DNA of 64,000 nucleotides from Octopus vulgaris (Eukaryota). The position numbers were made by a program, and so were the translations under genes. Each line of letters starts with the position of its first letter. Positions within the stretch are counted from its first letter, which is position 1. The notes beneath the pieces are model-generated. The model ran no database searches. It was not told the origin of the DNA and saw only the letters and a program-made list of their open reading frames with translations. The stretch spans positions 37,696,001-37,760,000 of the forward strand of contig OX597827.1 of NCBI GenBank assembly GCA_951406725.2, read 5' to 3'. Shown one piece after another: positions 28,455 through 60,033 of this stretch.

Positions 28455-31175
<2,721 letters not shown>

Positions 31176-37595: not shown

Positions 37596-37607
<12 letters not shown>

Positions 37608-38180
37608 AAACTGAGAATGTGTGTATGTCTGTCTTCTGTCTGTCTGTCTGTGTGTTTCCCTAAAACTTGAGAACTACACAACCAATTTCATTCAAATTTT
37701 ACACATGTCTTACTTAGGGTCCGGGGAGTGTCATCGGCAAAAAAAATGTTCAACTTTTTGCCTAGGGTGAGCCCACAGCAATATCATATCTTCTCCTCTA
37801 CGATTCCCTAAAACTTGAGAACTACACAACCAATTCCATTCAAATTTTATACATGCTTTACTTAGGGTCCATGTAGTTTCATGGGCAAAAAAATGTTCAA
37901 CTTCTTGTCTAGAGCGAGCGTATAGCAATATCATATCTTCTCCACTATTTCAGTATTACGTGTTAAAAGTGAAACAAAAACGTTTCTCTATTTTATGTCA
38001 GATACTCTCACTTTAACAATAAAAATAATAATAACAATTGAATTATATGTAGTAAGTAATAATTAGAATCAAACTAAAGTATAATATAATCGTAACATAA
38101 CAAAAGTAAAAATAGCAATTGGTATAAAATTGCATCAATGACTTGAACTTGAATAAGTGGTTTCACATGAATGGGAATAA
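37596..38180 (+). mobile_element. 5' part of a non-autonomous Helitron-like element with ~150 bp internal tandem repeat
   Basis: tatatataaaa..(GTCT)n..aactacacaaccaatttcattcaaattt start resembles non-autonomous Helitrons; ccctaaaacttgagaactacacaacc repeated at 37658 and 37806. Confidence 0.55.
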
Positions 38181-38242
38181 ATTGAAAATAAAATTAGCGT
38201 GCAGAAATGGAATAGTCCAGATGGATAATAAAAAATTAAATT

Positions 38243-38291
38243 AAAGAAAAGACTATTGTCTATAAAGTATACAATGTAGAGGAAAAAGGTG
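38243..38291 (+). pseudogene. ORF1 relic, family C, left part (split by the array)
   Basis: KEKTIVYKVYNVEEK matches B KRTIVYRVFANERK and A KRTITYRTWCVESK. Confidence 0.75.
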
Positions 38292-40086
38292 GCGTTTTTT
38301 TCGGCTCCCGTGTTTTTTTGAGTTAGTTAGTTGAGTTATTCTGGTGTGTTTATTCTGGTGTGTTTATTTCGAGTAAAGAGGTTGTGAGTTCGAGTTCGTT
38401 GGAGGACGTGGAAAAATTTTTTCTTGAAAATGCAAGAGCAGACTTACGCGCGAGCGGCAGGCAGAGGCCTGGTTGCCGGTGAACTGGAAATGGAGGAGGT
38501 GATGGTCGAACAGAAGACTTTACAGAAGTATTTCGACAGTTTAAAGAGGGAGGGTGACTGTGTGATAGTCACACCGTCCGAGGAGGAGGAAAGCAGTGCA
38601 GAGAAGCGTACTATAACGTACAGGACGTGGTGCGTGGAGTCGAAGAAGATTGAAGTAGCGGAAATGGAAGAAGTGGAAAGGTGTCTGAAGGAAATTGAGG
38701 GTGAACCAGCATTTTTTAAAAGAGGAAGGAAGTATGCCACGGTAGTGGTGTATTTTAAAACAGAAGAGGAGGCAAAAAAGAACGCTACAAGAATTTTGAA
38801 ATCGGATAAGTGGACTTTGCTACCAAGTTACTGCGGAAGGAGAGCAGTGAGGATGAGAATCAATAGAATCTCACCCGAATTTAATATGGAAAGGTTGCTG
38901 GCAGCAGTGCTGTTTAACTGCAAGGATGATGTGGAGGTACTGAAGGTGGAGAAGTCAGCAGAGGTGAAGTGGTGGGGATATACGGTGCAGGTTCTGGCAC
39001 ACATAACCGTGCGAGACCTGTACAACATCCCGGAGGAGTTGGTCTACCCTGACGAAACACGGCTCCGAGTTGTGGTAGAGGGAAGACCCCCAATTTGCTA
39101 TAACTGTAAATCGAGGGGCCACATGAAGGATGTGTGCCCGCGAGAAAAAACAAAAGCACCAGAGGTTGTGATAGAGGAGTGTAAAGAAGCGTGTGTGGAG
39201 GAAGCGAAAGCGGAGGAAACACAAATGGAGGAGCAGTTAAATGAGGAAGAACGAGCAAGTGCAGAAGAGGAAAAAACAGAAGACAAGAAGAGATCAAGGG
39301 TGGAATCACCACCGAAAGATATAAAAAAGAAAAAAATCAAAAGCAAGATAGCAGAAGAGAGAGAAGAGAAAAAAGAACAGGAAGTAAAAGAAAAGGTGAG
39401 AGAGCGACCAAGGACAGAGTTTGAACAAGAATGGGAGACAAGAGTGAACGAACAATTGGAATCGTGTAAATATGGAAGAAGGCCTACAGGAAAAAACTTG
39501 AAGGCAGTTGTGATGTATATCAAGAATACAGAAGTGGAAAAGAGACTTGTAGGTAAGAAAGGGTTGGTCAGGGTGAAGGTGAACCCAAAACTGTATGGTG
39601 AAGATGTAAAAGGCGTCATTATAGACAAGGAGACATACACAAAATTAAAAAAGATATATCATGCTATGCATATAATGCATTATGTACGGTATGATAAATT
39701 ACCAGATGTAATAGATCAAACGGACCTATTGGATTATATGACGGACGAGTGTCTAATGTAAAAGAATTAGAATTGTTACTTGTAAAATTATTTGATGTAA
39801 AGTTGTGTTTTTGAACAGGAATATATGTAATGTTAACATGTAAAATTGTAAAATTATTGTACTGTGAACTGGAATATATGTAACTGTAAAATTGTATTTT
39901 GAACTGGAATATATGAAATGTATAATTGTATTTTAAACGGAACTGCGAGTTGGGGGTTCGTAAGCCGTTCCATCTCATTACATATAAATTCATCTTTTAC
40001 TTCATATTTTATTTTTACTTTATGTACCCCATGTCCCGTCTTGTAATGTCCCCCTCTTCGTGGCCCCTTGTGGGTAATAAAAAAAT
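38292..40086 (+). mobile_element. ORF1-only (HAL1-like) non-autonomous retroelement, family A
   Basis: 5' GCGTTTTTTTCGGCTCCCGTGTTTTTTT, single ORF, 3' GCCCCTTGTGGGTAATAAAAAAAT; termini shared with family B. Confidence 0.85.
38430..39761 (+). CDS. Tx1/L1-type ORF1 (gag-like nucleic-acid-binding protein, CCHC knuckle), 443 aa from ATG
   Basis: Intact ORF; N-terminal TYA motif, putative RRM-like region, VVVEGRPPICYNCKSRGHMKDVC (CX2CX4HX4C), E/K-rich linker. Confidence 0.8.
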   Translation: MQEQTYARAAGRGLVAGELEMEEVMVEQKTLQKYFDSLKREGDCVIVTPSEEEESSAEKRTITYRTWCVESKKIEVAEMEEVERCLKEIEGEPAFFKRGRKYATVVVYFKTEEEAKKNATRILKSDKWTLLPSYCGRRAVRMRINRISPEFNMERLLAAVLFNCKDDVEVLKVEKSAEVKWWGYTVQVLAHITVRDLYNIPEELVYPDETRLRVVVEGRPPICYNCKSRGHMKDVCPREKTKAPEVVIEECKEACVEEAKAEETQMEEQLNEEERASAEEEKTEDKKRSRVESPPKDIKKKKIKSKIAEEREEKKEQEVKEKVRERPRTEFEQEWETRVNEQLESCKYGRRPTGKNLKAVVMYIKNTEVEKRLVGKKGLVRVKVNPKLYGEDVKGVIIDKETYTKLKKIYHAMHIMHYVRYDKLPDVIDQTDLLDYMTDECLM

Positions 40087-40261
40087 CGCGTTTTTTTCGG
40101 CTCGTGTTTTTTCGGCTTAAAATTCGGTAAAAAAGAACAAAAAGCGTTGTTGTTGTTGTGGAAATTCTGAACGGCGTTGACGCGGTTTCGCGTTTCGCTC
40201 GTTCAGCGCGTTACACTTTTTCTGTTTTGGCGGCCGTTTTCGGTCTGTCAGACAGAAGGAA

Positions 40262-41676
40262 ATGGACTATGAGTCTCTAACAGACTTGTCCACGACAGAT
40301 GAGGAACTGGAACAGGCAATTGCAATGAAGCTGATGGAAGAAAAGGCTGGAGTTTTCGAGTCTTTATCAGACTTGTCTACGTCTGAGGAGGAGCTAGAAA
40401 TGGCAGTGAGGAAAATGGATCAGAAGCTGGGTTATACCTATGCCGGTGTAACCAAGAAGGCGGAAGAGAAAGGGGTCGACATGGCCAAGTTGCCAAGTTA
40501 CCAGAAATACATGAAAAAGGAAAGCGGTGAGGTGGAACTATCACCGACACCCAGGAGAAAAGAATGGTATGATAAGAGGACCATTGTTTACAGGGTGTTC
40601 GCAAACGAAAGGAAGAGGGTAGAAGTTGTAACCATGGAATGGATAGAGGAAGCCCTGCGAAGAACTGAGGAGGAAATAAATTTTCTGACTCGAGGATCCA
40701 AGTACGGGACCGTAGTTGTGCACTTTAAAAGTGAATCTGCAGCGAGGAAGATGGCAGCGAAGGCGGTGAAGTCGGAAAAGGTAACACTGTTACCTACGTA
40801 TTTAAACAGGAGGATTACACGAATAAGGGTGGAGGGAGTGCCACCAAACGTGGAGGCAGAATGGATTGTGGCGGCTGTGATCAGCGGCCACGAGGACGAA
40901 GTGGATATTCTCCATGCCTCGGTTAAGTCCGAGGGCTGGAGAGGCGTAACAGTGGAGCTGAACGTACAGGCAGAGACCGAGGTACTGGTGGACCTGACGG
41001 AAAGCATCAGACTGGGAGAAGTGATCATGAGAGTGTGGGTGGAGGGCAGGGCTCCACGTTGTTACAAGTGTGGCCTGAGGGGTCACATAAGAGCCTTCTG
41101 CCCTCCCCCAGGGAAAGAAATGGATCCCGAACCAGAGAGAGAGAAGCAGAAACCAGAGGAGAAGGAAACAGAGGAAGAGAATACACAGAAATGGAAGGAA
41201 GCTGGAAGTAAGAGGAAGAGAAGAATCGTGGAAAAGAAAATAATATGGAACTCCAATCTACCCCAAAACCACCCACACCCTCTGAGTCCCACCCTATCCA
41301 TGCAGACATTGAACCCACCCGCTCCCCCCCAACAAGAAAACAAAAGAAAAAAAAGAATACACACACACAAGAGATTGAAATCGAACCCAGGCCGTACATT
41401 TGTACTATGACTGAACAGAAAGAAGTTAAAAGTCTAATGGAAGAGTATAAATGGTTTGATGTTGGAGAGACTAGGTATGCTGTGATTGAAAAGAAGAACA
41501 TAGGTGAGTTTATGGTGAGGTGTGAAAGGGAGAATTGGGAGGTGAAAGATATAAGAATGAGCGATGAATTCGTGGAAAATATGGATGAGTATTTCGGAGT
41601 AAGAATGGATATGGAATTTATTCGTATTGGCAAAGAACATTCAAGTGACTATGAAAAACAAAGGACAGGTAAGTGA
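40262..41676 (+). CDS. Family B ORF1, copy B1 (one frameshift)
   Basis: ORFs 40262-41410 and 41245-41676; VWVEGRAPRCYKCGLRGHIRAFC. Confidence 0.75.
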
Positions 41677-42360
41677 TGCTGACGGACGGGGCCGTTGGTA
41701 TCGCTTTCATTTTATCATTTTTTTCGTTTAACAATTCATGTTCATAAAGTTTAATTATAATGTTCAATGTCCCCATGTCTTTTGTTGTCCCCCTCTGTGT
41801 CGCCCCTTAGTGGGTAATAAAAAATCAGCTGTGATTGAAAAAAAGAACATAGGTGAGTTTATGGGGAGGTGTGAAAGGGAGAATTGGGAGGTGAAAGATA
41901 TAAGAATGAGCGATGAATTCGTGGAAAATATGGATGAGTATTTCGGAGTAAGAATGGATATGGAATTTATTCGTATTGGCAAAGAACATTCAAGTGACTA
42001 TGAAAAACAAAGGACAGGTAAGTGATGCTGACGGACGGGGCCGTTGGTATCGCTTTCATTTTATCATTTCTTCGTTTAACACTTCATGTTCTTATAGTTT
42101 AATTATAATGTTCTATGTCCCCATGTTTTGTTATGTCCACCACTCTTCGTAGCCCCTTAGTGGGTAATAAAGAAATACATGTTTTTTTCGGCTCCGTGTT
42201 TTTTTTTTCGGCTCCTGAAAATTCGGTAAAAAGGAACAAAAAGGGTTGTTGTTGTTGTGGAAATTCTGAACGGCGTTGACGCGGTTTCGCGTTTCGCTCG
42301 TTCGGCGCGTTACACTTTTTCTGTTTTGGCGGCCGTTCTCGGTCTGTCAGACAGAAGGAA

Positions 42361-43776
42361 ATGGACTATGAGTCTCTAACAGACTTGTCCACGACGGATG
42401 AGGAGCTGGAACAGGCAATTGCAATGAAGCTGATGGAAGAAAAGGCTGGAGTTTTCGAGTCTTTATCAGACTTGCCTACGTCTGAGAAGGAGCTAGAAAC
42501 GGCAGCAAGGGAATTGGAAGAGAAGCTGGGTTATACCTATGCCGGTGTAACCAAGAAGGCGGAAGAGAAAGGGGTCGACATGGCCAAGTTGCCAAGTTAC
42601 CAGAAATACATGAAAAAGGAAAGCGGTGAGGTGGAACTATCACCGACACCCAGGAGAAAAGAATGGTATGATAAGAGGACCATTGTTTACAGGGTGTGCG
42701 CAAACGAAAGGAAGAGGGTAGAAGTTGTATCCATGGAATGGATAGAGGAAGCCCTGCGAAGAACTGAGGAGGAAATAAATTTTCTGACTCGAGGATCCAA
42801 GTACGGGACCGTAGTTGTGCACTTTAAAAGTGAATCTGTAGCGAGGAAGATGGCAGCGAAGGCGGTGAAGTCGGAAAAGGTAACACTGTTACCTACGTAT
42901 TTAAACAGGAGGATTACACGAATAAGGGTGGAGGGAGTGCCACCAAACGTGGAGGCAGAATGGATTGTGGCGGCTGTGATCAGCGGCCACGAGGACGAAG
43001 TGGATATTCTCCATGCCTCGGTTAAGTCCGAGGGCTGGAGAGGCGTAACAGTGGAGCTGAACGTACAGGCAGAGACCGAGGTACTGGTGGACCTGACGGA
43101 AAGCATCAGACTGGGAGAAGTGATCATGAGAGTGTGGGTGGAGGGCAGGGCTCCACGTTGTTACAAGTGTGGCCTGAGGGGTCACATAAGAGCCTTCTGC
43201 CCTCCCCCAGGGAAAGAAATGGATCCCGAACCAGAGAGAGAGAAGCAGAAACCAGAGGAGAAGGAAACAGAGGAAGAGAATACACAGAAATGGAAGGAAG
43301 CTGGAAGTAAGAGGAAGAGAAGAATATGTGGAAAAAAAGAAAATAATATGGAACTCCAATCTACCCCAAAACCTCCCACACCCTCTGAGTCCCACCCTAT
43401 CCATGCAGACATTGAACCCACCCGCTCCCCCCAACAAGAAAACAAAAGAAAAAAAAGAATACACACACACAAGAGATTGAAATCGAACCCAGGCCGTACA
43501 TTTGTACTATGACTGAACAGAGGGAAGTTAAAAGTCTAATGGAAGAGTATAAACGGTATGATGTTGGAGAGACTAGGTATGCTGTGATTGAAAAAAGAAC
43601 ATAGGTGAGTTTATGGGGAGGTGTGAAAGGGAGAATTGGGAGGTGAAAGATATAAGAATGAGCGATGAATTCGTGGAAAATATGAATGAGTATTTCGGAG
43701 TAAGAATGGATATGGAATTTATTCGTATTGGCAAAGAACATTCAAGTGACTATGAAAAACAAAGGACAGGTAAGTG
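42361..43776 (+). CDS. Family B ORF1, copy B2 (homopolymer frameshifts)
   Basis: ORF 42361-43512 plus a disrupted C-terminal segment. Confidence 0.7.
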
Positions 43777-44111
43777 ATGCTGACGGACGGGGCCGTTGGT
43801 ATCGCTTTCATTTTATCATTTTTTTTCGTTTAACAATTCATGTTCATAAAGTTTAATTATAATGTTCTATGTCCCCATGTCTTTTGTTGTCCCCCTCTGT
43901 GTCGCCCCTTAGTGGGTAATAAAAAATCACATGTTTTTTTCGGCTCCGTGTTTTTTTTCGGCTCCTGAAAATTCGGTAAAAAAGAACAAAAAAGGTTGTT
44001 GTTGTTGTGGAAATTCTGAACGGCGTTGACGCGGTTTCGCGTTTCGCTCGTTCAGCGCGTTACACTTTTTCTGTTTTGGTGGCCGTTTTCGGTCTGTCAG
44101 ACAGAAAGGAA

Positions 44112-45530
44112 ATGGACTATGAGTCTCTAACAGACTTGTCCACGACAGATGAGGAACTGGAACAGGCAATTGCAATGAAGCTGATGGAAGAAAAGGCTGG
44201 AGTTTTCGAGTCTTTATCAGACCTGCCTACGTCTGAGAAGGAGCTAGAAATGGCAGCAAGGAATTTGGAAGAGAAGCTGGGTTATACCTATGCCGGTGTA
44301 ACCAAGAAGGCGGAAGAGAAAGGGGTCGACATGGCCAAGTTGCCAAGTTACCAGAAATACATGAAAAAGGAAAGCGGTGAGGTGGAACTATCACCGACAC
44401 CCAGGAGAAAAGAATGGTATGATAAGAGGACGATTATTTACAGGGTGTTCGCAAACGAAAGGAAGAGGGTAGAAGTTGTAACCATGGAATGGATAGAGGA
44501 AGCCCTGCGAAGAACTGAGGAGGAAATAAATTTTCTGACTCGAGGATCCAAGTACGGTACCGTAGTTGTGCATTTCAAAACTGAGTCTGCAGCGAGGAAG
44601 ATGGCGGCGAAGGCGGTGAAGTCAGAAAAGGTAAGCCTATTACCTACGTATTTAAACAGGAGGATTACACGAATAAGGGTGGAGGGAGTGCCACCAAACG
44701 TGGAGGCAGAATGGATTGTGGCGGCTGTGATCAGCGGCCACGAGGACGAAGTGGATATTCTCCATGCCTCGGTTAAGTCCGAGGGCTGGAGAGGCGTAAC
44801 AGTGGAGCTGAACGTACAGGCAGAGACCGAGGTACTGGTGGACCTGACGGAAAGCATCAGACTGGGAGACGTGATCATGAGAGTGTGGGTGGAGGGCAGG
44901 GCTCCACGTTGTTACAAGTGTGGCCTGAGGGGTCACATAAGAGCCTTCTGCCCTCCCCCAGGGAAAGAAATGGATTCCGAACCAGAGAGAGAGAAGCAGA
45001 AACCAGAGGAGAAGGAAACAGAGGAAGAGAATACACAGAAATGGAAGGAAGCTGGAAGTAAGAGGAAGAGAAGAATTCGTGGTAAAGAAAATAATATGGA
45101 ACTCCAATCTACCCCAAAACCACCCACACCCTCTGAGTCCCACCCTATCCATGCAGACATTGAACCCACCCGCTCCCCCCCCAACAAGAAAACAAAAGAA
45201 AAAAAAGAATACACACACACACAAGAGATTGAAATCGAACCCAGGCCGTACATTTGTACTATGACTGAACAGAGGGAAGTTAAAAGTCTAATGGAAGAGT
45301 ATAAACGGTATGATGTTGGAGAGACTAGGTATGCTGTGATTGAAAAAAAGAACATAGGTGAGTTTATGGGGAGGTGTGAAAGGGAGAATTGGGAGGTGAA
45401 AGATATAAGAATGAGCGATGAATTCGTGGAAAATATGAATGAGTATTTCGGAGTAAGAATGGATATGGAATTTATTCGTATTGGCAAAGAACATTCAAGT
45501 GACTATGAAAAACAAAGGACAGGTAAGTGA
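44112..45530 (+). CDS. Family B ORF1, copy B3, uninterrupted (472 aa from ATG)
   Basis: Open from MDYESL to KQRTGK*; CCHC knuckle; homologous to the family A ORF. Confidence 0.85.
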   Translation: MDYESLTDLSTTDEELEQAIAMKLMEEKAGVFESLSDLPTSEKELEMAARNLEEKLGYTYAGVTKKAEEKGVDMAKLPSYQKYMKKESGEVELSPTPRRKEWYDKRTIIYRVFANERKRVEVVTMEWIEEALRRTEEEINFLTRGSKYGTVVVHFKTESAARKMAAKAVKSEKVSLLPTYLNRRITRIRVEGVPPNVEAEWIVAAVISGHEDEVDILHASVKSEGWRGVTVELNVQAETEVLVDLTESIRLGDVIMRVWVEGRAPRCYKCGLRGHIRAFCPPPGKEMDSEPEREKQKPEEKETEEENTQKWKEAGSKRKRRIRGKENNMELQSTPKPPTPSESHPIHADIEPTRSPPNKKTKEKKEYTHTQEIEIEPRPYICTMTEQREVKSLMEEYKRYDVGETRYAVIEKKNIGEFMGRCERENWEVKDIRMSDEFVENMNEYFGVRMDMEFIRIGKEHSSDYEKQRTGK

Positions 45531-46154
45531 TGCTGACGGACGGGGCCGTTGGTATCGCTTTCATTTTATCATTTTTTTCGTTTAACACTTCATGTTCATA
45601 TAGTTTAATTATAATGTTCTATGTCCCCATGTTTTGTTATGTCCGCCGTTCTTCGTAGCCCCTTAGTGGGTAATAAAGAAATAGAAATAGAAAGATATAA
45701 GAATGAGCGATGAATTCGTGGAAAATATGAATGAGTATTTCGGAGTAAGAATGGATATGGAATTTATTCGTATTGGCAAAGAACATTCAAGTGACTATGA
45801 AAAACAAAGGACAGGTAAGTGATGCTGACGGACGGGGCCGTTGGTATCGCTTTCATTTTATCATTTTTTCGTTTAACAATTCATGTTCATAAAGTTTAAT
45901 TATAATGTTCTATGTCCCCATGTCTTTTGTTGTCCCCCTCTGTGTCGCCCCTTAGTGGGTAATAAAAAATCACATGTTTTTTTCGGCTCGTGTTTTTTTT
46001 TTCGGCTCCTGAAAATTCGGTAAAAAAGAACAAAAAAGGTTGTTGTTGTTGTGGAAATTCTGAACGGCGTTGACGCGGTTTCGCGTTTCGCTCGTTCAGC
46101 GCGTTACACTTTTTCTGTTTTGGTGGCCGTTTTCGGTCTGTCAGACAGAGGGAA

Positions 46155-47570
46155 ATGGATTATGAGTCTCTAACAGACTTGTCCACGACAGATGAGGAAC
46201 TGGAACAGGCAATTGCAATGAAGCTGATGGAAGAAAAGGCTGGAGTTTTCGAGTCTTTATCAGACTTGCCTACGTCTGAGAAGGGGCTAGAAATGGCAGC
46301 AAGGAAATTGGAAGACAAGCTGAGTTATACCTATGCCGGTGTAACCAAGAAGGCGGAAGAGAAAGGGGTCGACATGGCCAAGTTGCCAAGTTACCAGAAA
46401 TACATGGAAAAGGAAAGCGGTGAGGTGGAACTATCACCGACACCCAGGAGAAAAGAATGGTATGATAAGAGGACCATTGTTTACAGGGTGTGCGCAAACG
46501 AAAGGAAGAGGGTAGAAGTTGTATCCATGGAATGGATAGAGGAAGCCCTGCGAAGAACTGAGGAGGAAATAAATTTTCTGACTCGAGGATCCAAGTACGG
46601 GACCGTAGTTGTGCACTTTAAAAGTGAATCTGCAGCGAGGAAGATGGCAGCGAAGGCGGTGAAGTCGGAAAAGGTAACACTGTTACCTACGTATTTAAAC
46701 AGGAGGATTACACGAATAAGGGTGGAGGGAGTGCCACCAAACGTGGAGGCAGAATGGATTGTGGCGGCTGTGATCAGCGGCCACGAGGACGAAGTGGATA
46801 TTCTCCATGCCTCGGTTAAGTCCGAGGGCTGGAGAGGCGTAACAGTGGAGCTGAACGTACAGGCAGAGACCGAGGTACTGGTGGACCTGACGGAAAGCAT
46901 CAGACTGGGAGAAGTGATCATGAGAGTGTGGGTGGAGGGCAGGGCTCCACGTTGTTACAAGTGTGGCCTGAGGGGTCACATAAGAGCCTTCTGCCCTCCC
47001 CCAGGGAAAGAAATGGATCCCGAACCAGAGAGAGAAAGCAGAAACCAGAGGAGAAGGAAACAGAGGAAGAGAATACACAGAAATGGAAGGAAGCTGGAAG
47101 TAAGAGGAAGAGAAGAATATGTGGAAAAAAGAAAATAATATGGAACTCCAATCTATCCCAAAACCTCCCACACCCTCTGAGTCCCACCCTATCCATGCAG
47201 ACATTGAACCCACCCGCTCCCCCCCAACAAGAAAACAAAAGAAAAAAAGAATACACACACACAAGAGATTGAAATCGAACCCAGGCCGTACATTTGTACT
47301 ATGACTGAACAGAGGGAAGTTAAAAGTCTAATGGAAGAGTATAAATGGTATGATGTTGGAGAGACTAGGTATGCTGTGATTGAAAAGAAGAACATAGGTG
47401 AGTTTATGGGGAGGTGTGAAAGGGAGAATTGGGAGGTGAAAGATATAAGAATGAGCGATGAATTCGTGGAAAATATGAATGAGTATTTCGGAGTAAGAAT
47501 GGATATGGAATTTATTCGTATTGGCAAAGAACATTCAAGTGACTATGAAAAACAAAGGACAGGTAAGTGA
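46155..47570 (+). CDS. Family B ORF1, copy B4 (frameshifts)
   Basis: ORFs 46155-47138, 47119-47304 and 47301-47570. Confidence 0.7.
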
Positions 47571-47901
47571 TGCTGACGGACGGGGCCGTTGGTATCGCTT
47601 TCATTTTATCATTTTTTTCGTTTAACAATTCATGTTCATAAAGTTTAATTATAATGTTCTATGTCCCCATGTCTTTTGTTGTCCCCCTCTGTGTCGCCCC
47701 TTAGTGGGTAATAAAAAATCACATGTTTTTTTCGGCTCGTGTTTTTTTTTCGGCTCCTGAAAATTCGGTAAAAAAGAACAAAAAGGTTGTTGTTGTTGTG
47801 GAAATTCTGAACGGCGTTGACGCGGTTTCGCGTTTCGCTCGTTCAGCGCGTTACACTTTTTCTGTTTTGGCGGCCGTTTTCGGTCTGTCAGACAGAAGGA
47901 A

Positions 47902-49317
47902 ATGGACTATGAGTCTCTAACAGACTTGTCCACGACGGATGAGGAACTGGAACAGGCAATTGCAGTGAAGCTGATGGAGAAAAGGCTGGAGTTTTCGAGT
48001 CTTTATCAGACTTGCCTACGTCTGAGAAGGAGCTAGAAATGGCAGCAAGGAAATTGGAAGACAAGCTGGGTTATACCTATGCCGGTGTAACCAAGAAGGC
48101 GGAAGAGAAAGGGGTCGACATGGCCAAGTTGCCAAGTTACCAGAAATACATGAAAAAGGAAAGCGGTGAGGTGGAACTATCACCGACACCCAGGAGAAAA
48201 GAATGGTATGATAAGAGGACCATTGTTTACAGGGTGTTCGCAAACGAAAGGAAGAGGGTAGAAGTTGTATCCATGGAATGGATAGAGGAAGCCCTGCGAA
48301 GAACTGAGGAGGAAATAAATTTTCTGACTCGAGGATCCAAGTACGGGACCGTAGTTGTGCACTTTAAAAGTGAATCTGCAGCGAGGAAGATGGCAGCGAA
48401 GGCGGTGAAGTCGGAAAAGGTAACACTGTTACCTACGTATTTAAACAGGAGGATTACACGAATAAGGGTGGAGGGAGTGCCACCAAACGTGGAGGCAGAA
48501 TGGATTGTGGCGGCTGTGATCAGCGGCCACGAGGACGAAGTGGATATTCTCCATGCCTCGGTTAAGTCCGAGGGCTGGAGAGGCGTAACAGTGGAGCTGA
48601 ACGTACAGGCAGAGACCGAGGTACTGGTGGACCTGACGGAAAGCATCAGACTGGGAGAAGTGATCATGAGAGTGTGGGTGGAGGGCAGGGCTCCACGTTG
48701 TTACAAGTGTGGCCTGAGGGGTCACATAAGAGCCTTCTGCCCTCCCCAGGGAAAGAAATGGATCCCGAACCAGAGAGAGAGAAGCAGAAACCAGAGGAGA
48801 AGGAAACAGAGGAAGAGAATACACAGAAATGGAAGGAAGCTGGAAGTAAGAGGAAGAGAAGAATATGTGGAAAAAAAGAAAATAATATGGAACTCCAATC
48901 TACCCCAAAACCTCCCACACCCTCTGAGTCCCACCCTATCCATGCAGACATTGAACCCACCCGCTCCCCCCAACAAGAAAACAAAAGAAAAAAAAGAATA
49001 CACACACACAAGAGATTGAAATCGAACCCAGGCCGTACATTTGTACTATGACTGAACAGAGGGAAGTTAAAAGTCTAATGGAAGAGTATAAATGGTATGA
49101 TGTTGGAGAGACTAGGTATGCTGTGATTGAAAAGAAGAACATAGGTGAGTTTATGGGGAGGTGTGAAAGGGAGAATTGGGAGGTGAAAGATATAAGAATG
49201 AGCGATGAATTCGTGGAAAATATGAATGAGTATTTCGGAGTAAGAATGGATATGGAATTTATTCGTATTGGCAAAGAACATTCAAGTGACTATGAAAAAC
49301 AAAGGACAGGTAAGTGA
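47902..49317 (+). CDS. Family B ORF1, copy B5 (frameshifts)
   Basis: ORFs 48012-49019, 48674-49051 and 49048-49317. Confidence 0.7.
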
Positions 49318-49646
49318 TGCTGACGGACGGGGCCGTTGGTATCGCTTTCATTTTATCATTTTTTTCGTTTAACAATTCATGTTCATAAATTTAATTATAA
49401 TGTTCTATGTCCCCATGTCTTTTGTTGTCCCCCTCTGTGTCGCCCCTTAGTGGGTAATAAAAAATCACATGTTTTTTCGGCTCGTGTTTTTTTTCGGCTC
49501 CTGAAAATTCGGTAAAAAAGAACAAAAAGCGTTGTTGTTGTTGTGGAAATTCTGAACGGCGTTGACGCGGTTTCGCGTTTCGCTCGTTCAGCGCGTTACA
49601 CTTTTTCTGTTTTGGCGGCCGTTTTCGGTCTGTCAGACAGAAGGAA

Positions 49647-51063
49647 ATGGACTATGAGTCTCTAACAGACTTGTCCACGACAGATGAGGAACTGGAACAG
49701 GCAATTGCAATGAAGCTGATGGAAGAAAAGGCTGGAGTTTTCGAGTCTTTATCAGACTTGCCTACGTCTGAGAAGGAGCTAGAAATGGCAGCAAGGAAAT
49801 TGGAAGACAAGCTGAGTTATACCTATGCCGGTGTAACCAAGAAGGCGGAAGAGAAAGGGGTCGACATGGCCAAGTTGCCAAGTTACCAGAAATACATGGA
49901 AAAGGAAAGCGGTGAGGTGGAACTATCACCGACACCCAGGAGAAAAGAATGGTATGATAAGAGGACCATTGTTTACAGGGTGTTCGCAAACGAAAGGAAG
50001 AGGGTAGAAGTTGTAACCATGGAATGGATAGAGGAAGCCCTGCGAAGAACTGAGGAGGAAATAAATTTTCTGACTCGAGGATCCAAGTACGGGACCGTAG
50101 TTGTGCACTTTAAAAGTGAATCTGCAGCGAGGAAGATGGCAGCGAAGGCGGTGAAGTCGGAAAAGGTAACACTGTTACCTACGTATTTAAACAGGAGGAT
50201 TACACGAATAAGGGTGGAGGGAGTGCCACCAAACGTGGAGGCAGAATGGATTGTGGCGGCTGTGATCAGCGGCCACGAGGACGAAGTGGATATTCTCCAT
50301 GCCTCGGTTAAGTCCGAGGGCTGGAGAGGCGTAACAGTGGAGCTGAACGTACAGGCAGAGACCGAGGTACTGGTGGACCTGACGGAAAGCATCAGACTGG
50401 GAGAAGTGATCATGAGAGTGTGGGTGGAGGGCAGGGCTCCACGTTGTTACAAGTGTGGCCTGAGGGGTCACATAAGAGCCTTCTGCCCTCCCCCAGGGAA
50501 AGAAATGGATCCCGAACCAGAGAGAGAGAAGCAGAAACCAGAGGAGAAGGAAACAGAGGAAGAGAATACACAGAAATGGAAGGAAGCTGGAAGTAAGAGG
50601 AAGAGAAGAATATGTGGAAAAAAAGAAAATAATATGGAACTCCAATCTACCCCAAAACCTCCCACACCCTCTGAGTCCCACCCTATCCATGCAGACATTG
50701 AACCCACCCGCTCCCCCCAACAAGAAAACAAAAGAAAAAAAGAATACACACACACAAGAGATTGAAATCGAACCCAGGCCGTACATTTGTACTATGACTG
50801 AACAGAGGGAAGTTAAAAGTCTAATGGAAGAGTATAAACGGTATGATGTTGGAGAGACTAGGTATGCTGTGATTGAAAAGAAGAACATAGGTGAGTTTAT
50901 GGGGAGGTGTGAAAGGGAGAATTGGGAGGTGAAAGATATAAGAATGAGCGATGAATTCGTGGAAAATATGAATGAGTATTTCGGAGTAAGAATGGATATG
51001 GAATTTATTCGTATTGGCAAAGAACATTCAAGTGACTATGAAAAACAAAGGACAGGTAAGTGA
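49647..51063 (+). CDS. Family B ORF1, copy B6 (frameshift)
   Basis: ORFs 49647-50765 and 50614-51063. Confidence 0.7.
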
Positions 51064-51400
51064 TGCTGACGGACGGGGCCGTTGGTATCGCTTTCATTTT
51101 ATCATTTTTTCGTTTAACAATTCATGTTCATAAAGTTTAATTATAATGTTCTATGTCCCCATGTTTTGTTATGTCCGCCATTCTTCGTAGCCCCTTAGTG
51201 GGTAATAAAGAAATCACAGCGTTTTTTTCGGCTCCGTGTTTTTTTTTTCGGCTCCTGAAAATTCGGTAAAAAAGAACAAAAAAGGTTGTTGTTGTTGTGG
51301 AAATTCTGAACGGCGTTGACGCGGTTTCGCGTTTCGCTCGTTCAGCGCGTTACACTTTTTCTGTTTTGGCGGCCGTTTTCGGTCTGTCAGACAGAAGGAA

Positions 51401-52818
51401 ATGGACTATGAGTCTCTAACAGACTTGTCCACGACAGATGAGGAACTGGAACAGGCAATTGCAATGAAGCTGATGGAAGAAAAGGCTGGAGTTTTCGAGT
51501 CTTTATCAGACTTGCCTATGTCTGAGAAGGAGCTAGAAATGGCAGCAAGGAAATTGGAAGACAAGCTGAGTTATACCTATGCCGGTGTAACCAAGAAGGC
51601 GGAAGAGAAAGGGGTCGACATGGCCAAGTTGCCAAGTTACCAGAAATACATGAAAAAGGAAAGCGGTGAGGTGGAACTATCACCGACACCCAGGAGAAAA
51701 GAATGGTATGATAAGAGGACCATTGTTTACAGGGTGTGCGCAAACGAAAGGAAGAGGGTAGAAGTTGTAACCATGGAATGGATAGAGGAAGCCCTGCGAA
51801 GAACTGAGGAGGAAATAAATTTTCTGACTCGAGGATCCAAGTACGGGACCGTAGTTGTGCACTTTAAAAGTGAATCTGCAGCGAGGAAGATGGCAGCGAA
51901 GGCGGTGAAGTCGGAAAAGGTAACACTGTTACCTACGTATTTAAACAGGAGGATTACACGAATAAGGGTGGAGGGAGTGCCACCAAACGTGGAGGCAGAA
52001 TGGATTGTGGCGGCTGTGATCAGCGGCCACGAGGACGAAGTGGATATTCTCCATGCCTCGGTTAAGTCCGAGGGCTGGAGAGGCGTAACAGTGGAGCTGA
52101 ACGTACAGGCAGAGACCGAGGTACTGGTGGACCTGACGGAAAGCATCAGACTGGGAGAAGTGATCATGAGAGTGTGGGTGGAGGGCAGGGCTCCACGTTG
52201 TTACAAGTGTGGCCTGAGGGGTCACATAAGAGCCTTCTGCCCTCCCCCAGGGAAAGAAATGGATCCCGAACCAGAGAGAGAGAAGCAGAAACCAGAGGAG
52301 AAGGAAACAGAGGAAGAGAATACACAGAAATGGAAGGAAGCTGGAAGTAAGAGGAAGAGAAGAATATGTGGAAAAAAAGAAAATAATATGGAACTCCAAT
52401 CTACCCCAAAACCTCCCACACCCTCTGAGTCCCACCCTATCCATGCAGACATTGAACCCACCCGCTCCCCCCAACAAGAAAACAAAAAAAAAAAAAGAAT
52501 ACACACACACAAGAGATTGAAATCGAACCCAGGCCGTACATTTGTACTATGACTGAACAGAGGGAAGTTAAAAGTCTAATGGAAGAGTATAAACGGTATG
52601 ATGTTGGAGAGACTAGGTATGCTGTGATTGAAAAAAAGAACATAGGTGAGTTTATGGGGAGGTGTGAAAGGGAGAATTGGGAGGTGAAAGATATAAGAAT
52701 GAGCGATGAATTCGTGGAAAATATGAATGAGTATTTCGGAGTAAGAATGGATATGGAATTTATTCGTATTGGCAAAGAACATTCAAGTGACTATGAAAAA
52801 CAAAGGACAGGTAAGTGA
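51401..52818 (+). CDS. Family B ORF1, copy B7 (frameshift)
   Basis: ORFs 51401-52552 and 52549-52818. Confidence 0.7.
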
Positions 52819-53148
52819 TGCTGACGGACGGGGCCGTTGGTATCGCTTTCATTTTATCATTTTTTCGTTTAACAATTCATGTTCATAAAGTTTAATTATA
52901 ATGTTCTATGTCCCCATGTCTTTTGTATGTCCCCTCTGTGTCGCCCCTTAGTGGGTAATAAAAAATCACATGTTTTTTTCGGCTCCGTGTTTTTTTTTCG
53001 GCTCCTGAAAATTCGGTAAAAAAGAACAAAAAGGTTGTTGTTGTTGTGGAAATTCTGAACGGCGTTGACGCGGTTTCGCGTTTCGCTCGTTCAGCGCGTT
53101 ACACTTTTTCTGTTTTGGCGGCCGTTTTCGGTCTGTCAGACAGAGGAA

Positions 53149-54567
53149 ATGGACTATGAGTCTCTAACAGACTTGTCCACGACAGATGAGGAACTGGAAC
53201 AGGCAATTGCAATGAAGCTGATGGAAGAAAAGGCTGGAGTTTTCGAGTCTTTATCAGACTTGCCTACGTCTGAGAAGGAGCTAGAAATGGCAGCAAGGGA
53301 AATTGGAAGACAAGCTGAGTTATACCTATGCCGGTGTAACCAAGAAGGCGGAAGAGAAAGGGGTCGACATGGCCAAGTTGCCAAGTTACCAGAAATACAT
53401 GAAAAAGGAAAGCGGTGAGGTGGAACTATCACCGACACCCAGGAGAAAAGAATGGTATGATAAGAGGACCATTGTTTACAGGGTGTTCGCAAACGAAAGG
53501 AAGAGGGTAGAAGTTGTAACCATGGAATGGATAGAGGAAGCCCTGCGAAGAACTGAGGAGGAAATAAATTTTCTGACTCGAGGATCCAAGTACGGGACCG
53601 TAGTTGTGCACTTTAAAAGTGAATCTGCAGCGAGGAAGATGGCAGCGAAGGCGGTGAAGTCGGAAAAGGTAACACTGTTACCTACGTATTTAAACAGGAG
53701 GATTACACGAATAAGGGTGGAGGGAGTGCCACCAAACGTGGAGGCAGAATGGATTGTGGCGGCTGTGATCAGCGGCCACGAGGACGAAGTGGATATTCTC
53801 CATGCCTCGGTTAAGTCCGAGGGCTGGAGAGGCGTAACAGTGGAGCTGAACGTACAGGCAGAGACCGAGGTACTGGTGGACCTGACGGAAAGCATCAGAC
53901 TGGGAGAAGTGATCATGAGTGTGTGGGTGGAGGGCAGGGCTCCACGTTGTTACAAGTGTGGCCTGAGGGGTCACATAAGAGCCTTCTGCCCTCCCCCAGG
54001 GAAAGAAATGGATCCCGAACCAGAGAGAGAGAAGCAGAAACCAGAGGAGAAGGAAACAGAGGAAGAGAATACACAGAAATGGAAGGAAGCTGGAAGTAAG
54101 AGGAAGAGAAGAATATGTGGAAAAAAAGAAAATAATATGGAACTCCAATCTATCCCAAAACCTCCCACACCCTCTGAGTCCCACCCTATCCATGCAGACA
54201 TTGAACCCACCCGCTCCCCCCCAACAAGAAAACAAAAGAAAAAAAGAATACACACACACAAGAGATTGAAATCGAACCCAGGCCGTACATTTGTACTATG
54301 ACTGAACAGAGGGAAGTTAAAAGTCTAATGGAAGAGTATAAACGGTATGATGTTGGAGAGACTAGGTATGCTGTGATTGAAAAGAAGAACATAGGTGAGT
54401 TTATGGGGAGGTGTGAAAGGGAGAATTGGGAGGTGAAAGATATAAGAATGAGCGATGAATTCGTGGAAAATATGAATGAGTATTTCGGAGTAAGAATGGA
54501 TATGGAATTTATTCGTATTGGCAAAGAACATTCAAGTGACTATGAAAAACAAAGGACAGGTAAGTGA
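53149..54567 (+). CDS. Family B ORF1, copy B8 (frameshifts)
   Basis: ORFs 53303-54301 and 54298-54567. Confidence 0.7.
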
Positions 54568-54899
54568 TGCTGACGGACGGGGCCGTTGGTATCGCTTTCA
54601 TTTTATCATTTTTTCGTTTAACAATTCATGTTCATAAAGTTTAATTATAATGTTCTATGTCCCCATGTCTTTTGTTATGTCCGCCCTCTTCGTAGCCCCT
54701 TAGTGGGTAATAAAAAATCACATGTTTTTTTCGGCTCGTGTTTTTTTTTTCGCTCTGAAAATTCGGTAAAAAAGAACAAAAAGGTTGTTGTTGTTGTGGA
54801 AATTCTGAACGGCGTTGACGCGGTTTCGCGTTTCGCTCGTTCAGCGCGTTACACTTTTTCTGTTTTGGCGGCCGTTTTCGGTCTGTCAGACAGAAGGAA

Positions 54900-56314
54900 A
54901 TGGACTATGAGTCTCTAACAGACTTGTCCACGACAGATGAGGAACTGGAACAGGCAATTGCAATGAAGCTGATGGAAGAAAAGGCTGGAGTTTTCGAGTC
55001 TTTATCAGACTTGCCTACGTCTGAGAAGGAGCTAGAAATGGCAGCAAGGAAATTGGAAGAAAGCTGAGTTATACCTATGCCGGTGTAACCAAGAAGGCGG
55101 AAGAGAAAGGGGTCGACATGGCCAAGTTGCCAAGTTACCAGAAATACATGAAAAAGGAAAGCGGTGAGGTGGAACTATCACCGACACCCAGGAGAAAAGA
55201 ATGGTATGATAAGAGGACCATTGTTTACAGGGTGTTCGCAAACGAAAGGAAGAGGGTAGAAGTTGTAACCATGGAATGGATAGAGGAAGCCCTGCGAAGA
55301 ACTGAGGAGGAAATAAATTTTCTGACTCGAGGATCCAAGTACGGGACCGTAGTTGTGCACTTTAAAAGTGAATCTGCAGCGAGGAAGATGGCAGCGAAGG
55401 CGGTGAAGTCGGAAAAGGTAACACTGTTACCTACGTATTTAAACAGGAGGATTACACGAATAAGGGTGGAGGGAGTGCCACCAAACGTGGAGGCAGAATG
55501 GATTGTGGCGGCTGTGATCAGCGGCCACGAGGACGAAGTGGATATTCTCCATGCCTCGGTTAAGTCCGAGGGCTGGAGAGGCGTAACAGTGGAGCTGAAC
55601 GTACAGGCAGAGACCGAGGTACTGGTGGACCTGACGGAAAGCATCAGACTGGGAGAAGTGATCATGAGAGTGTGGGTGGAGGGCAGGGCTCCACGTTGTT
55701 ACAAGTGTGGCCTGAGGGGTCACATAAGAGCCTTCTGCCCTCCCCCAGGGAAAGAAATGGATCCCGAACCAGAGAGAGAGAAGCAGAAACCAGAGGAGAA
55801 GGAAACAGAGGAAGAGAATACACAGAAATGGAAGGAAGCTGGAAGTAAGAGGAAGAGAAGAATATGTGGAAAAAAAGAAAATAATATGGAACTCCAATCT
55901 ATCCCAAAACCTCCCACACCCTCTGAGTCCCACCCTATCCATGCAGACATTGAACCCACCCGCTCCCCCCAACAAGAAAACAAAAAAAAAAAGAATACAC
56001 ACACACAAGAGATTGAAATCGAACCCAGGCCGTACATTTGTACTATGACTGAACAGAGGGAAGTTAAAAGTCTAATGGAAGAGTATAAATGGTATGATGT
56101 TGGAGAGACTAGGTATGCTGTGATTGAAAAGAAGAACATAGGTGAGTTTATGGGGAGGTGTGAAAGGGAGAATTGGGAGGTGAAAGATATAAGAATGAGC
56201 GATGAATTCGTGGAAAATATGAATGAGTATTTCGGAGTAAGAATGGATATGGAATTTATTCGTATTGGCAAAGAACATTCAAGTGACTATGAAAAACAAA
56301 GGACAGGTAAGTGA
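54900..56314 (+). CDS. Family B ORF1, copy B9 (early frameshift, remainder continuous)
   Basis: ORF 55118-56314. Confidence 0.7.
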
Positions 56315-56629
56315 TGCTGACGGACGGGGCCGTTGGTATCGCTTTCATTTTATCATTTTTTCGTTTAACAATTCATGTTCATAAAGTTTAATTATAATGT
56401 TCTATGTCCCCATGTTTTGTTGTGTCCCCTCTGTGTCGCCCCTTAGTGGGTAATAAAAAATCACTTGTTTTTTTTTTGCGCTCTGTAAAATTCGGTAAAA
56501 AAGAACAAAAAGCGTTGTTGTTGTTGTGGAAATTCTGAACGGCGTTGACGCGGTTTCGCGTTTCGCTCGTTCAGCGCGTTACACTTTTTCTGTTTTGGCG
56601 GCCGTTTTCGGTCTGTCAGACAGAAGGAA

Positions 56630-58047
56630 ATGGACTATGAGTCTTTAACAGACTTGTCCACGACAGATGAGGAACTGGAACAGGCAATTGCAATGAAGCT
56701 GATGGAAGAAAAGGCTGGAGTTTTCGAGTCTTTATCAGACTTGTCTACATCTGAGGAGGAGCTAGAAATAGCAGTGAGGAAAATGGATCAGAAGCTGGGT
56801 TATACCTATGCCGGTGTAACCAAGAAGGCGGAAGAGAAAGGGGTCGACATGGCCAAGTTGCCAAGTTACCAGAAATACATGAAAAAGGAAAGCGGTGAGG
56901 TGGAACTATCACCGACACCCAGGAGAAAAGAATGGTATGATAAGAGGACCATTGTTTACAGGGTGTTCGCAAACGAAAGGAAGAGGGTAGAAGTTGTAAC
57001 CATGGAATGGATAGAGGAAGCCCTGCGAAGAACTGAGGAGGAAATAAATTTTCTGACTCGAGGATCCAAGTACGGGACCGTAGTTGTGCACTTTAAAAGT
57101 GAATCTGCAGCGAGGAAGATGGCAGCGAAGGCGGTGAAGTCGGAAAAGGTAACACTGTTACCTACGTATTTAAACAGGAGGATTACACGAATAAGGGTGG
57201 AGGGAGTGCCACCAAACGTGGAGGCAGAATGGATTGTGGCGGCTGTGATCAGCGGCCACGAGGACGAAGTGGATATTCTCCATGCCTCGGTTAAGTCCGA
57301 GGGCTGGAGAGGCGTAACAGTGGAGCTGAACGTACAGGCAGAGACCGAGGTACTGGTGGACCTGACGGAAAGCATCAGACTGGGAGAAGTGATCATGAGA
57401 GTGTGGGTGGAGGGCAGGGCTCCACGTTGTTACAAGTGTGGCCTGAGGGGTCACATAAGAGCCTTCTGCCCTCCCCCAGGGAAAGAAATGGATCCCGAAC
57501 CAGAGAGAGAGAAGCAGAAACCAGAGGAGAAGGAAACAGAGGAAGAGAATACACAGAAATGGAAGGAAGCTGGAAGTAAGAGGAAGAGAAGAATATGTGG
57601 AAAAAAAGAAAATAATATGGAACTCCAATCTACCCCAAAACCTCCCACACCCTCTGAGTCCCACCCTATCCATGCAGACATTGAACCCACCCGCCCCCCC
57701 CAACAAGAAAACAAAAGAAAAAAAAGAATACACACACACAAGAGATTGAAATCGAACCCAGGCCGTACATTTGTACTATGACTGAACAGAGGGAAGTTAA
57801 AAGTCTAATGGAAGAGTATAAACGGTATGATGTTGGAGAGACTAGGTATGCTGTGATTGAAAAGAAGAACATAGGTGAGTTTATGGGGAGGTGTGAAAGG
57901 GAGAATTGGGAGGTGAAAGATATAAGAATGAGCGATGAATTCGTGGAAAATATGAATGAGTATTTCGGAGTAAGAATGGATATGGAATTTATTCGTATTG
58001 GCAAAGAACATTCAAGTGACTATGAAAAACAAAGGACAGGTAAGTGA
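56630..58047 (+). CDS. Family B ORF1, copy B10 (frameshift)
   Basis: ORFs 56630-57781 and 57778-58047. Confidence 0.7.
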
Positions 58048-58199
58048 TGCTGACGGACGGGGCCGTTGGTATCGCTTTCATTTTATCATTTTTTTCGTTT
58101 AACAATTCATGTTCATAAAGTTTAATTATAATGTTCTATGTCCCCATGTTTTGTTATGTCCGCCATTCTTCGTAGCCCCTTAGTGGGTAATAAAGAAAT

Positions 58200-58500
58200 C
58201 ACATGGAGGAAAGCACCTTCGAAAAGTGTCTTGGTACGACTATGAAAGGTATCTAATCAGAGGCGGTAAATTCGCCACAATAGAAGCAAGGTTCGAGTCA
58301 ACGGAGCGTGCAAGGGAGTACTCGACTCGAACTTTCAAAGTGGAAATATTTTATTTTTACCTTTATATCTGGGACGTAGGACGTCCCGGAAAAAAATAAA
58401 AAATACCCCCCCCCCCCCCGAAGTAGAGGTAGGCCGGATTGTAGCCACAATTCTATACAAGAGGGAGGACAAGATACAATTGATCGAAATTGCAAGAGAC
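58200..58500 (+). pseudogene. ORF1 relic, family C, right part
   Basis: HMEESTFEKCL / YLIRGGKFATIEARFESTERAREYSTRTF / ILFLPLYLGRRTSR / PEVEVGRIVATILYKREDKIQLIEI aligns collinearly with A and B (RGRKYATVVVYFKTEEEAKK, LLPSYCGRR, PNVEAEWIVAAVISGHEDEVDIL). Confidence 0.85.
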
Positions 58501-58636
58501 GGGCTTACGTATTGTTATCACTAGCGATATCAAGATATAACTTTGTATTTTGTATTTTATGTGTAGATGTATATATATAGATATACATGTAATATGTACA
58601 CATATATATACACATATATACATGCACTAGCACTAT

Positions 58637-58667
58637 GACCCGGCAACGACGGGTCTTTAATGCTAGT
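58637..58667 (+). mobile_element. Helitron 3' terminus (hairpin + CTAG)
   Basis: GACCCG-gcaacga-CGGGTC, then tttaatg CTAG|T. Confidence 0.7.
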
Positions 58668-59426: not shown

Positions 59427-59963
59427 CAAAGAAAACCAAACCTGGGAAGAAATCAAACCTGGAGAAGTAAAATTGAAAAAGAGATTGAATTTATGAGAGG
59501 GGAAATATCAATATTAAATGAACTAATATGTGGAAATGATGTAAGATCCAGAACAGGAAGAAAAATGAAGAGAAAATTTGGATCCTCACCAAGAGAAGAA
59601 CTGATATTAATAAAAGAAACGCTGAAACAAAAAGTCCAAGCAAAAGCCCAAAGAATACGAAGATTTGAGAAGAGAAACAAGTTTTACAAGCAAAATAAGC
59701 TGTTCACATCCAATGCCAAAAAATTCTACAGAGAAATAGGGAAGGAGAAAGTAACCGTTAAAGACCCCCCTCCCATGGAAGAAGTTCAAAACTTTTGGAA
59801 AAGGATTTGGAGTGACAAGAAGACGTATAACATAAATGCAGACTGGATTATACAAACAGAAGGATCCTACCAAAATTTACAACAACAAGCATGGGAAGAC
59901 ATCACAATAGCAGACCTAAGAAAGGCACTCACGAAGGCCCATAATCGGAAATCCCCCGGTAAA
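59424..59963 (+). mobile_element. R4/Dong internal fragment upstream of the RT domain, between (TAA)n tracts
   Basis: ORF 59493-59966; its last ~200 bp duplicate the start of the downstream copy. Confidence 0.85.
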
Positions 59964-59980
59964 TAATAATGATGATGATG

Positions 59981-60030
<50 letters not shown>

Positions 60031-60033
<3 letters not shown>

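Follow-up and report, generated by a model that had tools for sequence, protein, structure and literature searches.

What builds a head-to-tail array of units that each carry one open reading frame (ORF) and no enzyme with which to copy it, and how did so many of these units come to stand at one place? The question is raised by a 64,000-nucleotide (nt) stretch of the Octopus vulgaris genome (assembly GCA_951406725.2, contig OX597827.1, positions 37,696,001 to 37,760,000, forward strand), which we call the window, and in which an earlier note made from the sequence alone had described an array of retrotransposons of two families, A and B. We conclude that the array very probably consists of non-autonomous, ORF1-only retrotransposons of the L1/Tx1 group, which lack long terminal repeats (LTRs) and stack at a fixed site within a Helitron.

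The array and its site in a Helitron

As assembled, the array comprises one A unit, 10 full B units, and 2 5′-truncated B units, all head-to-tail on the + strand, and this count, already given in the earlier note, is borne out by the unit bounds and by a scan of the window in which the tail motif GTGGGTAATAAA occurs 13 times, always on the + strand, between 40070 and 58183. The first unit (38289..40087) is ORF1-only, belongs to subfamily A1, begins with about 28 nt that match a B-type head, and encodes a 443-aa ORF1 protein (38430..39761; from the ORF list and a structure model). Unit comparison then places a full B whose ORF is frameshifted in the assembly (40088..41826), a 5′-truncated B of 351 nt with its tail intact (41827..42177), a full B (42178..43928), a full B with an uninterrupted 472-aa ORF1 at 44112-45530 (43929..45683), and a 5′-truncated B of 288 nt whose 5′ junction holds a slipped GAAATA repeat (45684..45971). 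Seven more full B units follow (45972..58201), 0.8-2.9% apart and mostly joined via a 4-nt CATG remnant of the target, at 45972-47720, 47721-49466, 49467-51216, 51217-52967, 52968-54719, 54720-56462, and 56463-58201. Full B units measure 1739-1755 nt, and the units of the window differ pairwise by 0.8-3.2% in mosaic patterns.

The note had given every full unit one ORF and neither reverse transcriptase (RT) nor endonuclease. Within the array, an ORF scan indeed detects no frame for an RT or an endonuclease, but of the 10 full B units just one keeps the 472-aa frame uninterrupted, the other nine being frameshifted in this assembly. Of 36 indels relative to the uninterrupted unit, 23 fall within runs of at least 4 bases, and the break at 41226-41231 of the first B is present in an in-frame form in four other sequencing runs. 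We examined 93 full-length B copies, drawn from 43 loci: 81 keep the conserved core unbroken, and 3 contain an in-frame stop. We read most of the B frame breaks as probable sequencing errors, which applies to the set of copies and not to each copy. A and B do agree in their first ~28 and last ~60 nt, as the note had said, but the 28-nt head is not a feature of the whole lineage: by eye it is absent from the 5′ flank in 20/20 sampled A loci, and so we take it to be a B-type piece captured by A1.

The note had also recognized the tandem stacking but missed its cause, a fixed target in a Helitron whose two halves flank the array. Helitrons typically have a 5′ TC and a 3′ hairpin plus CTRR, and they insert between A and T. 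The 5′ half of the carrier, identified from its recurring flank and its termini, lies at 37597..38288 (+; the start is approximate, in a TA run), and it ends in ~55 nt that belong to a decayed ORF1 fragment captured by the carrier. On the other side of the array (+ strand) come a captured, frameshifted fragment of a related ORF1 (58202..58500; hhalign 96.6%, E = 6e-10) and then the Helitron 3′ end (58501..58666) with the hairpin CCCGGCAACGACGGG (58639-58653) and CTAG|T. The flanks recur around other arrays and join seamlessly in empty copies of 1.0-1.17 kb with termini TC...CTAG|T, in which hmmsearch detects the ORF1 fragment with iE down to 1e-15. With its TC start, 3′ hairpin and CTAG, A/T flanks, and captured gene fragment, the carrier is a non-autonomous Helitron.

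The target site lies inside the captured ORF1 fragment. Its right half, CATGGAGGAAAG (58202..58213, +), is the fixed 3′ junction of B, of C1 and E, which together with C2 are the other ORF1-only families found in arrays, and of an autonomous element, D. Genome-wide there are 321 exact empty sites GAACA|CATGGAGGAAAG and 90 exact filled right junctions (D/E tail end 63, C1 15, B 9, other 3), and reversed controls gave 0 for both. When 24 filled carriers were compared with 21 empty rows (20 distinct, chosen as the nearest to the window flank), the rows formed a star with 3-5% pairwise divergence, and the filled copies did not cluster but were interspersed with the empty ones (13 changes vs 15.2 shuffled). 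Divergence of the cargo between loci is 0.2% for A1 (16 copies), 0.46% for D1 (6), 1.3% for C1 (12), 1.7% for E (4), and 3.4% for B (93). A1, C1, and D1 are far younger than the carriers, which differ by 4-5%, and so were inserted, not carried along. For B, the distance is smaller than the carrier distance in 231/253 locus pairs, and the two are uncorrelated (rho 0.01).

The dispersed copies that the note had predicted exist. B has at least 150 genome matches, all 94-100% identical, on many contigs and mostly in tandem (about 58 clusters), and those of A range from 100 down to 49% identity among the matches listed. Many loci carry such arrays, with 1-13 units each; the 93 full B units have the tail at their end and no ORF2, and target-site duplications of about 13-18 bp are found at other loci. 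A and B are present in runs from four studies, and two runs guessed to be RNA cover both, although contigs cannot show transcription. Compared with copy L152, an A-lineage copy (L160, C7:29255800-29258100) has 178 substitutions, of which 167 read A>G along the sense strand; these edits avoid a 5′ G neighbor (11/183, vs 100/232 after A), a bias that ADAR also has. L160 has a 13-bp target duplication, and its ORF is still open (454 aa) despite the 167 changes. B copies rich in A>G number 3/93, all within arrays (22/23, 16/18, and 18/18). From these hyper-edited copies we conclude that both A and B move through an RNA intermediate, and dispersal, target duplications, and 5′ truncation mark them as ORF1-only elements mobilized via RNA. 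Copies of B and A in inverted, facing orientation occur at two loci (L045, 3540-7824; L132, 8953-9870), one B having an internal inversion, and such loci could yield a double-stranded RNA substrate of editing.

The ORF1 protein and an autonomous relative

The A (443 aa) and B (472 aa) proteins are homologous yet diverged, as the note had it, with 38% identity across 216 aa (E = 5e-40). The AlphaFold model of A (mean pLDDT 74) shows the anticipated RRM-like and CCHC parts, namely two RRM-like, ferredoxin-like domains (about 50-137 and 138-220) and a CCHC knuckle (222-237), followed by a disordered linker and an ordered C-terminal domain (330-436) with a fold of no known match. Foldseek ranks tandem-RRM proteins at the top (E about 3e-4), and VIA finds the La RRM (Z 8.5, root-mean-square deviation 3.1, 82 residues), which barely exceeds the ordinary range; L1 ORF1p is not among the fold matches listed by either. 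Pfam reports zf-CCHC only, below threshold, a sequence search of solved structures matches the knuckle alone, and Atlas features point to CCHC proteins and the ZCCHC3 RNA-binding cluster (0.90, rank 8). The domain at 330-436 is confidently modeled as alpha/beta and kept throughout the A lineage, and it has no Pfam match and no usable Atlas match.

A word-indexed homologue search with A gave no match. A profile search with ORF1 found homologues in Octopus vulgaris, O. bimaculoides, O. sinensis, and Argonauta hians, the nearest named ones octopod, and those that are named are annotated as uncharacterised or CCHC proteins, just as the note had expected of automated annotation. The A+E branch also includes two proteins of O. 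bimaculoides. Four related ORF1 proteins of cluster P0016 lie on contigs of 1849-1930 nt, the size of an ORF1-only unit. What decides the identity of ORF1 is its homology to the first ORF of elements with an ORF2: the ORF1-only proteins align with five ORF1s that precede an ORF2, with 15 invariant columns. ORF1 is under purifying selection in several ORF1-only lineages. The ratio of nonsynonymous to synonymous substitution (dN/dS, Nei-Gojobori, core), which the note had proposed as a check, is 0.05-0.11 in five measurable A-lineage pairs with A1, 0.17 for C1/C2, and 0.09 for E/E2, other pairs being saturated. In the ORF1 tree, A+E and B+C are separated by a supported branch; a single clade of ORF1-only lineages is not rejected (approximately unbiased test, p-AU 0.45).

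The autonomous partner with an ORF2 and the same 3′ tail that the note had asked for is D, a 5.26-kb element at C12:75.77 Mb that lies directly 3′ of a B unit and is itself in tandem. It contains an ORF1 homologue, a 1131-aa ORF2 (Exo_endo_phos, RVT_1, zf-RVT), and the tail GCCCCTTGTGGGTAATAA. The closest solved structure to its ORF2 is L1 ORF2p (E = 5e-65; R2, 5e-26). An ORF1 followed by an ORF2 with APE endonuclease, RT, and a C-terminal zinc motif puts D in the L1/Tx1 group, and it is a likely member of the Tx1 clade. We surveyed the ends of 35 further D1 copies out of the 40 best matches, the other 5 being already in the data set. At the 3′ end, 26 adjoin the Helitron right half, 4 a D/E head, and 5 other sequence, so that 30/35 show a Tx1-style target preference, often in repeats. 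On the 5′ side, where the head is expected, 7 are full-length copies set straight into the carrier, with 11-bp repeats around them; a B, C, or E-type tail stands before 15 others and a D tail before 4, and 9 show no head.

The ORF1-only families and D have tail and target in common, and judging from these shared features, the D ORF2 is likely their helper. RNAalifold finds in the tail a weak 4-pair hairpin only, with two-sided changes in 2 pairs. On inspection by eye we discarded the idea of a hepatitis delta virus-like tail, and with Rfam neither the array nor the 20 A loci gave a ribozyme or a small-RNA head. An abundant short interspersed nuclear element (SINE), seen at 15989-16441 of the window (2.5 tandem 184-nt copies) and at four other loci (L033, L042, L049, L138), ends in TGTCCCC...GCCCCTTGTGGG(C/T)AATAAAGAAAT; because this is the tail of A, B, and D, the SINE probably uses the same helper group.

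Growth of the arrays, alternatives, and older targets

We propose that each unit would be transcribed and would encode its own RNA-binding ORF1 protein, acting in cis as a chaperone, while the 3′ tail of the unit (pyrimidine tract, short hairpin, AATAAA) would be taken in trans by the endonuclease/RT of the D ORF2. The endonuclease would nick GAACA|CATGG in the multicopy Helitron, and target-primed reverse transcription would add a copy. As the right half of the site persists, the next copies could enter the same nick and the array would lengthen, the 5′-truncated units being the marks of separate insertion events. A1, with its B-type head, would insert in front of resident heads. Some units may spread as multimers or with pieces of the donor 5′ flank, their transcripts including flanks, and local duplication or conversion may enlarge some arrays.

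Several observations bear on this sequence of events within an array, which we infer. The C1 tail is followed by a CATG-type target in 12/12 cases and the A1 tail by a T-rich head in 16/16. A/B/C2 stand 5′ of C1, E, and D in 21/21 informative arrays (0/20000 shuffles), a test in which the groups were set post hoc, the orders were typed by hand, and one divergent 5′ autonomous copy was left out. The exceptions involve divergent D, which comes before C2 at C1:108.56 Mb and before B at C26:13.9 Mb. Truncated units after an intact tail fit growth at a regenerated 3′ nick or template jumping. Some linkers are copies of 35-70 nt of upstream flank, one truncation is common to three chromosomes, and at C7:4.98 Mb a three-unit B array lies in a SINE with only its first unit truncated and with linkers equal to the flank of another locus. 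This suggests that the mobile RNA includes flanking sequence and at times several units, gene conversion also being possible, and targeting may be helped by such co-transcribed flanks.

It could instead be that arrays form in single events, either by an RT jump from a primed autonomous RNA or by the copying of whole read-through multimers, and if so the ORF1-only families would be passengers of the insertion of D. The array order without violation in 21 arrays speaks for this, as does the absence of an A/B/C head after any of the 35 further D1 3′ ends, and the trimer in the SINE is truncated in its first unit alone. However, many arrays, including that of the window, contain no D, a B or C1 tail stands at 24 of the 90 exact filled junctions, and a divergent D precedes C2 and B at the two exceptional loci, while sequential insertion with different targets explains why the youngest families, D1 and A1, stand at opposite ends. 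We consider single events possible but doubtful. Much less room is left for a Helitron that captured one element and spread it by rolling circle, with arrays arising via unequal crossing-over only. Most sampled B arrays do share one carrier, several chromosomes show the same rare junctions (a B truncation at position 119; a tail with 70 nt of carrier attached), and 6/10 units of the window are nearest to each other, but the cargo is much younger than the interspersed filled and empty carriers, B and carrier distances are uncorrelated, and the make-up of the cargo varies by locus. Moreover, single A>G-edited units occur within arrays, the nearest relative lies in the same array for only 19/73 array B copies, and copies sit in other targets with their own duplications, so that this route is largely refuted as the main one and very improbable.

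A tandem-expanded host family of ZCCHC3-like CCHC proteins would account for the Atlas resemblance and for the purifying selection, but it is refuted by the empty sites and the helper data and ruled out by the lack of introns, the dispersal, the duplications, the truncations, the edited copies, and the homology to the ORF1 of ORF2 elements; its probability is vanishingly small. That the array is an artefact of assembly is also extremely improbable: frameshifts do gather in homopolymer runs and no contig from the runs examined spans the array, but the units differ in mosaic fashion, the flanks rejoin into one known empty carrier, and arrays of various lengths recur at many loci, with A and B in the runs of four studies.

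Other results weigh against stacking by D-assisted insertion as we describe it. The whole B frame is open in only 18/93 full-length copies of the assembly. Only 4/10 full B units of the window are nearest to copies elsewhere and 6/10 to array mates, from which it follows that local duplication or conversion contributed, and B overall (3.4%) is not clearly younger than the carriers. At L170, an A-like copy (57%), an ORF2 3′ fragment lies directly behind a shortened ORF1. Autonomous elements have at least five distinct types of ORF1, which makes D only one candidate helper for any given family, and the RT homologues of D are unnamed or generic RTs of fish, amphibians, and turtles, which leaves Tx1 rather than L1 membership no more than likely.

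Older A copies lie in other targets. We sampled 20 of at least 150 matches (57-97% identity, long open frames favored), and 19/20 have no ORF2 match within 2.3 kb. The tail is visible in 17/20, its hairpin being altered in older copies. Twelve of the 20 lie 30-47 nt upstream of a hammerhead core, and others lie in an LTR-like repeat or a second Helitron-like end. The hammerhead motif (11 sequences) has 89% of cells paired and two-sided changes in 11/13 pairs (0/500 shuffles), and with its CUGANGA/GAAA core, three covarying helices, and short palindromic helix III the repeat carries a type I hammerhead with predicted cleavage. Rfam did not report the hammerhead of this repeat. Hammerheads at L154-L168 are diverse type I forms in a ~400-nt repeat with a covarying TCAGTGA...TCACTGA hairpin upstream. 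The repeat resembles the hammerhead-bearing pseudo-LTRs (pLTRs) of such layout described in PMC4209133. No ORF for a Penelope-type RT with GIY-YIG was found within about 3-4 kb on either side at the two hammerhead-repeat loci searched, at one of which an inverted repeat copy adjoins. At L241 (1693-2470), 1.7 kb upstream of an A copy, there is a 259-codon open frame that presumably resembles a Schlafen/AlbA-type domain.

ORF1 as the sole determinant of the target is disfavored, as B copies only 0.6-3.4% from Helitron-borne B use different targets, and so do A copies that are 97% identical in protein. Tentatively, and with rather low confidence, the ORF1-only lineages might be long-lived "promoter and ribozyme squatters" guided to their target by flanks. 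They would land about 30 nt below TATA-like boxes (Helitron, LTR-like, and hammerhead repeats) and be transcribed from them, RNA flanks would guide copies to similar sites so that changed donor neighbors mean a changed target, and A1 would now go to B heads, having captured one itself. Where a hammerhead lies downstream, it would set the RNA 3′ end, and the particle may be held at the machinery of transcription initiation by ORF1 or by its C-terminal domain. In the window, a TATA-like TATAAAG (38261..38267, +) 28 nt 5′ of the first unit's head is a candidate borrowed promoter. TATA[AT][AG] occurs at -24 to -40 in 5/9 target classes vs 8.9% background, which is a lead only, the motif and interval having been picked after four classes were viewed and just 1 of the 5 others fitting.

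Related systems and what the array means

Mammalian L1 ORF1p has a coiled-coil/RRM/C-terminal domain layout. With two RRM-like domains, a CCHC knuckle, and octopod nearest homologues, the octopus elements are not mammalian HAL1 proper, and the HAL1-like label of the earlier note holds in that they are ORF1-only with an ORF1 homologous to that of autonomous elements. HAL1 is an ORF1p-only, non-autonomous derivative that arose more than once in mammals (PMC5753468). The octopus units, likewise ORF1-only and non-autonomous, differ in their mollusc host, RRM-RRM-CCHC ORF1, target preference, tandem stacking, lack of a poly(A) tail, and independent origin, and are an independent analogue of HAL1. 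HeT-A-type telomeric elements of Drosophila also code for ORF1 only, but they belong to the Jockey clade, sit at chromosome ends, and have a host function (bioRxiv 10.1101/2025.06.09.658640), whereas the octopus units are of the L1/Tx1 group and interstitial, at an endonuclease-made nick with target duplications. The window lies at 37.7 Mb of an 84.7-Mb contig, and most arrays are interstitial, unlike the chromosome-end arrays of HeT-A/TART/TAHRE.

The nearest parallels are Xenopus Tx1L in Tx1D and crocodilian Tx1-Mar and SINEU in Mariner-N4_AMi, where an element and its dependants likewise favor a single position within a non-autonomous DNA transposon, a target duplication is enclosed between tandem insertions, and flank transcription was proposed (PMC4494074). 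In contrast, the octopus dependants are protein-coding and under purifying selection, and besides the Helitron, a hammerhead repeat, an LTR-like repeat, and sister-element heads serve as targets. Thirteen recently active L1-Tx1 families were reported in Octopus vulgaris (PMC13282606), and the retrieved portion of that annotation makes no mention of ORF1-only families, arrays, or targets, although its consensus library may contain the octopus units described here; those of PMC8967140 and PMC8869645 hold nothing further on ORF1-only L1-Tx1 families. Full-text literature, with Repbase and Dfam outside the search, gave no ORF1-only Tx1 in molluscs and no Tx1 targets in Helitrons or beside hammerheads, and the combination of ORF1-only coding with fixed-site stacking in a DNA transposon was not found in the literature searched.

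Elsewhere in the window are two RT elements by TAA repeats and without the tail of the array, at 28617-31046 (-; RVT_1, E = 4e-26) and 59493-61771 (+), both of which we take to resemble R4/Dong restriction-like-endonuclease elements. A degenerate, interstitial TTAGGG-like array with higher-order periods of 126 and 234 nt lies at 16917-17752.

For the biology of these elements, the array means that "half" elements can persist long by occupying other repeats. The system is young (A1 0.2%, D1 0.46%) and holds helper, several dependants, a SINE with the same tail, and, alongside filled sites, several hundred empty ones in one genome. It makes testable why a non-autonomous element retains ORF1 under strong and long selection, and whether it is the endonuclease or the flanking RNA that decides where L1/Tx1 elements insert. 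In addition, ADAR-type edits have become fixed in genomic copies, and some of the "uncharacterised CCHC proteins" of octopus are transposon ORF1s.

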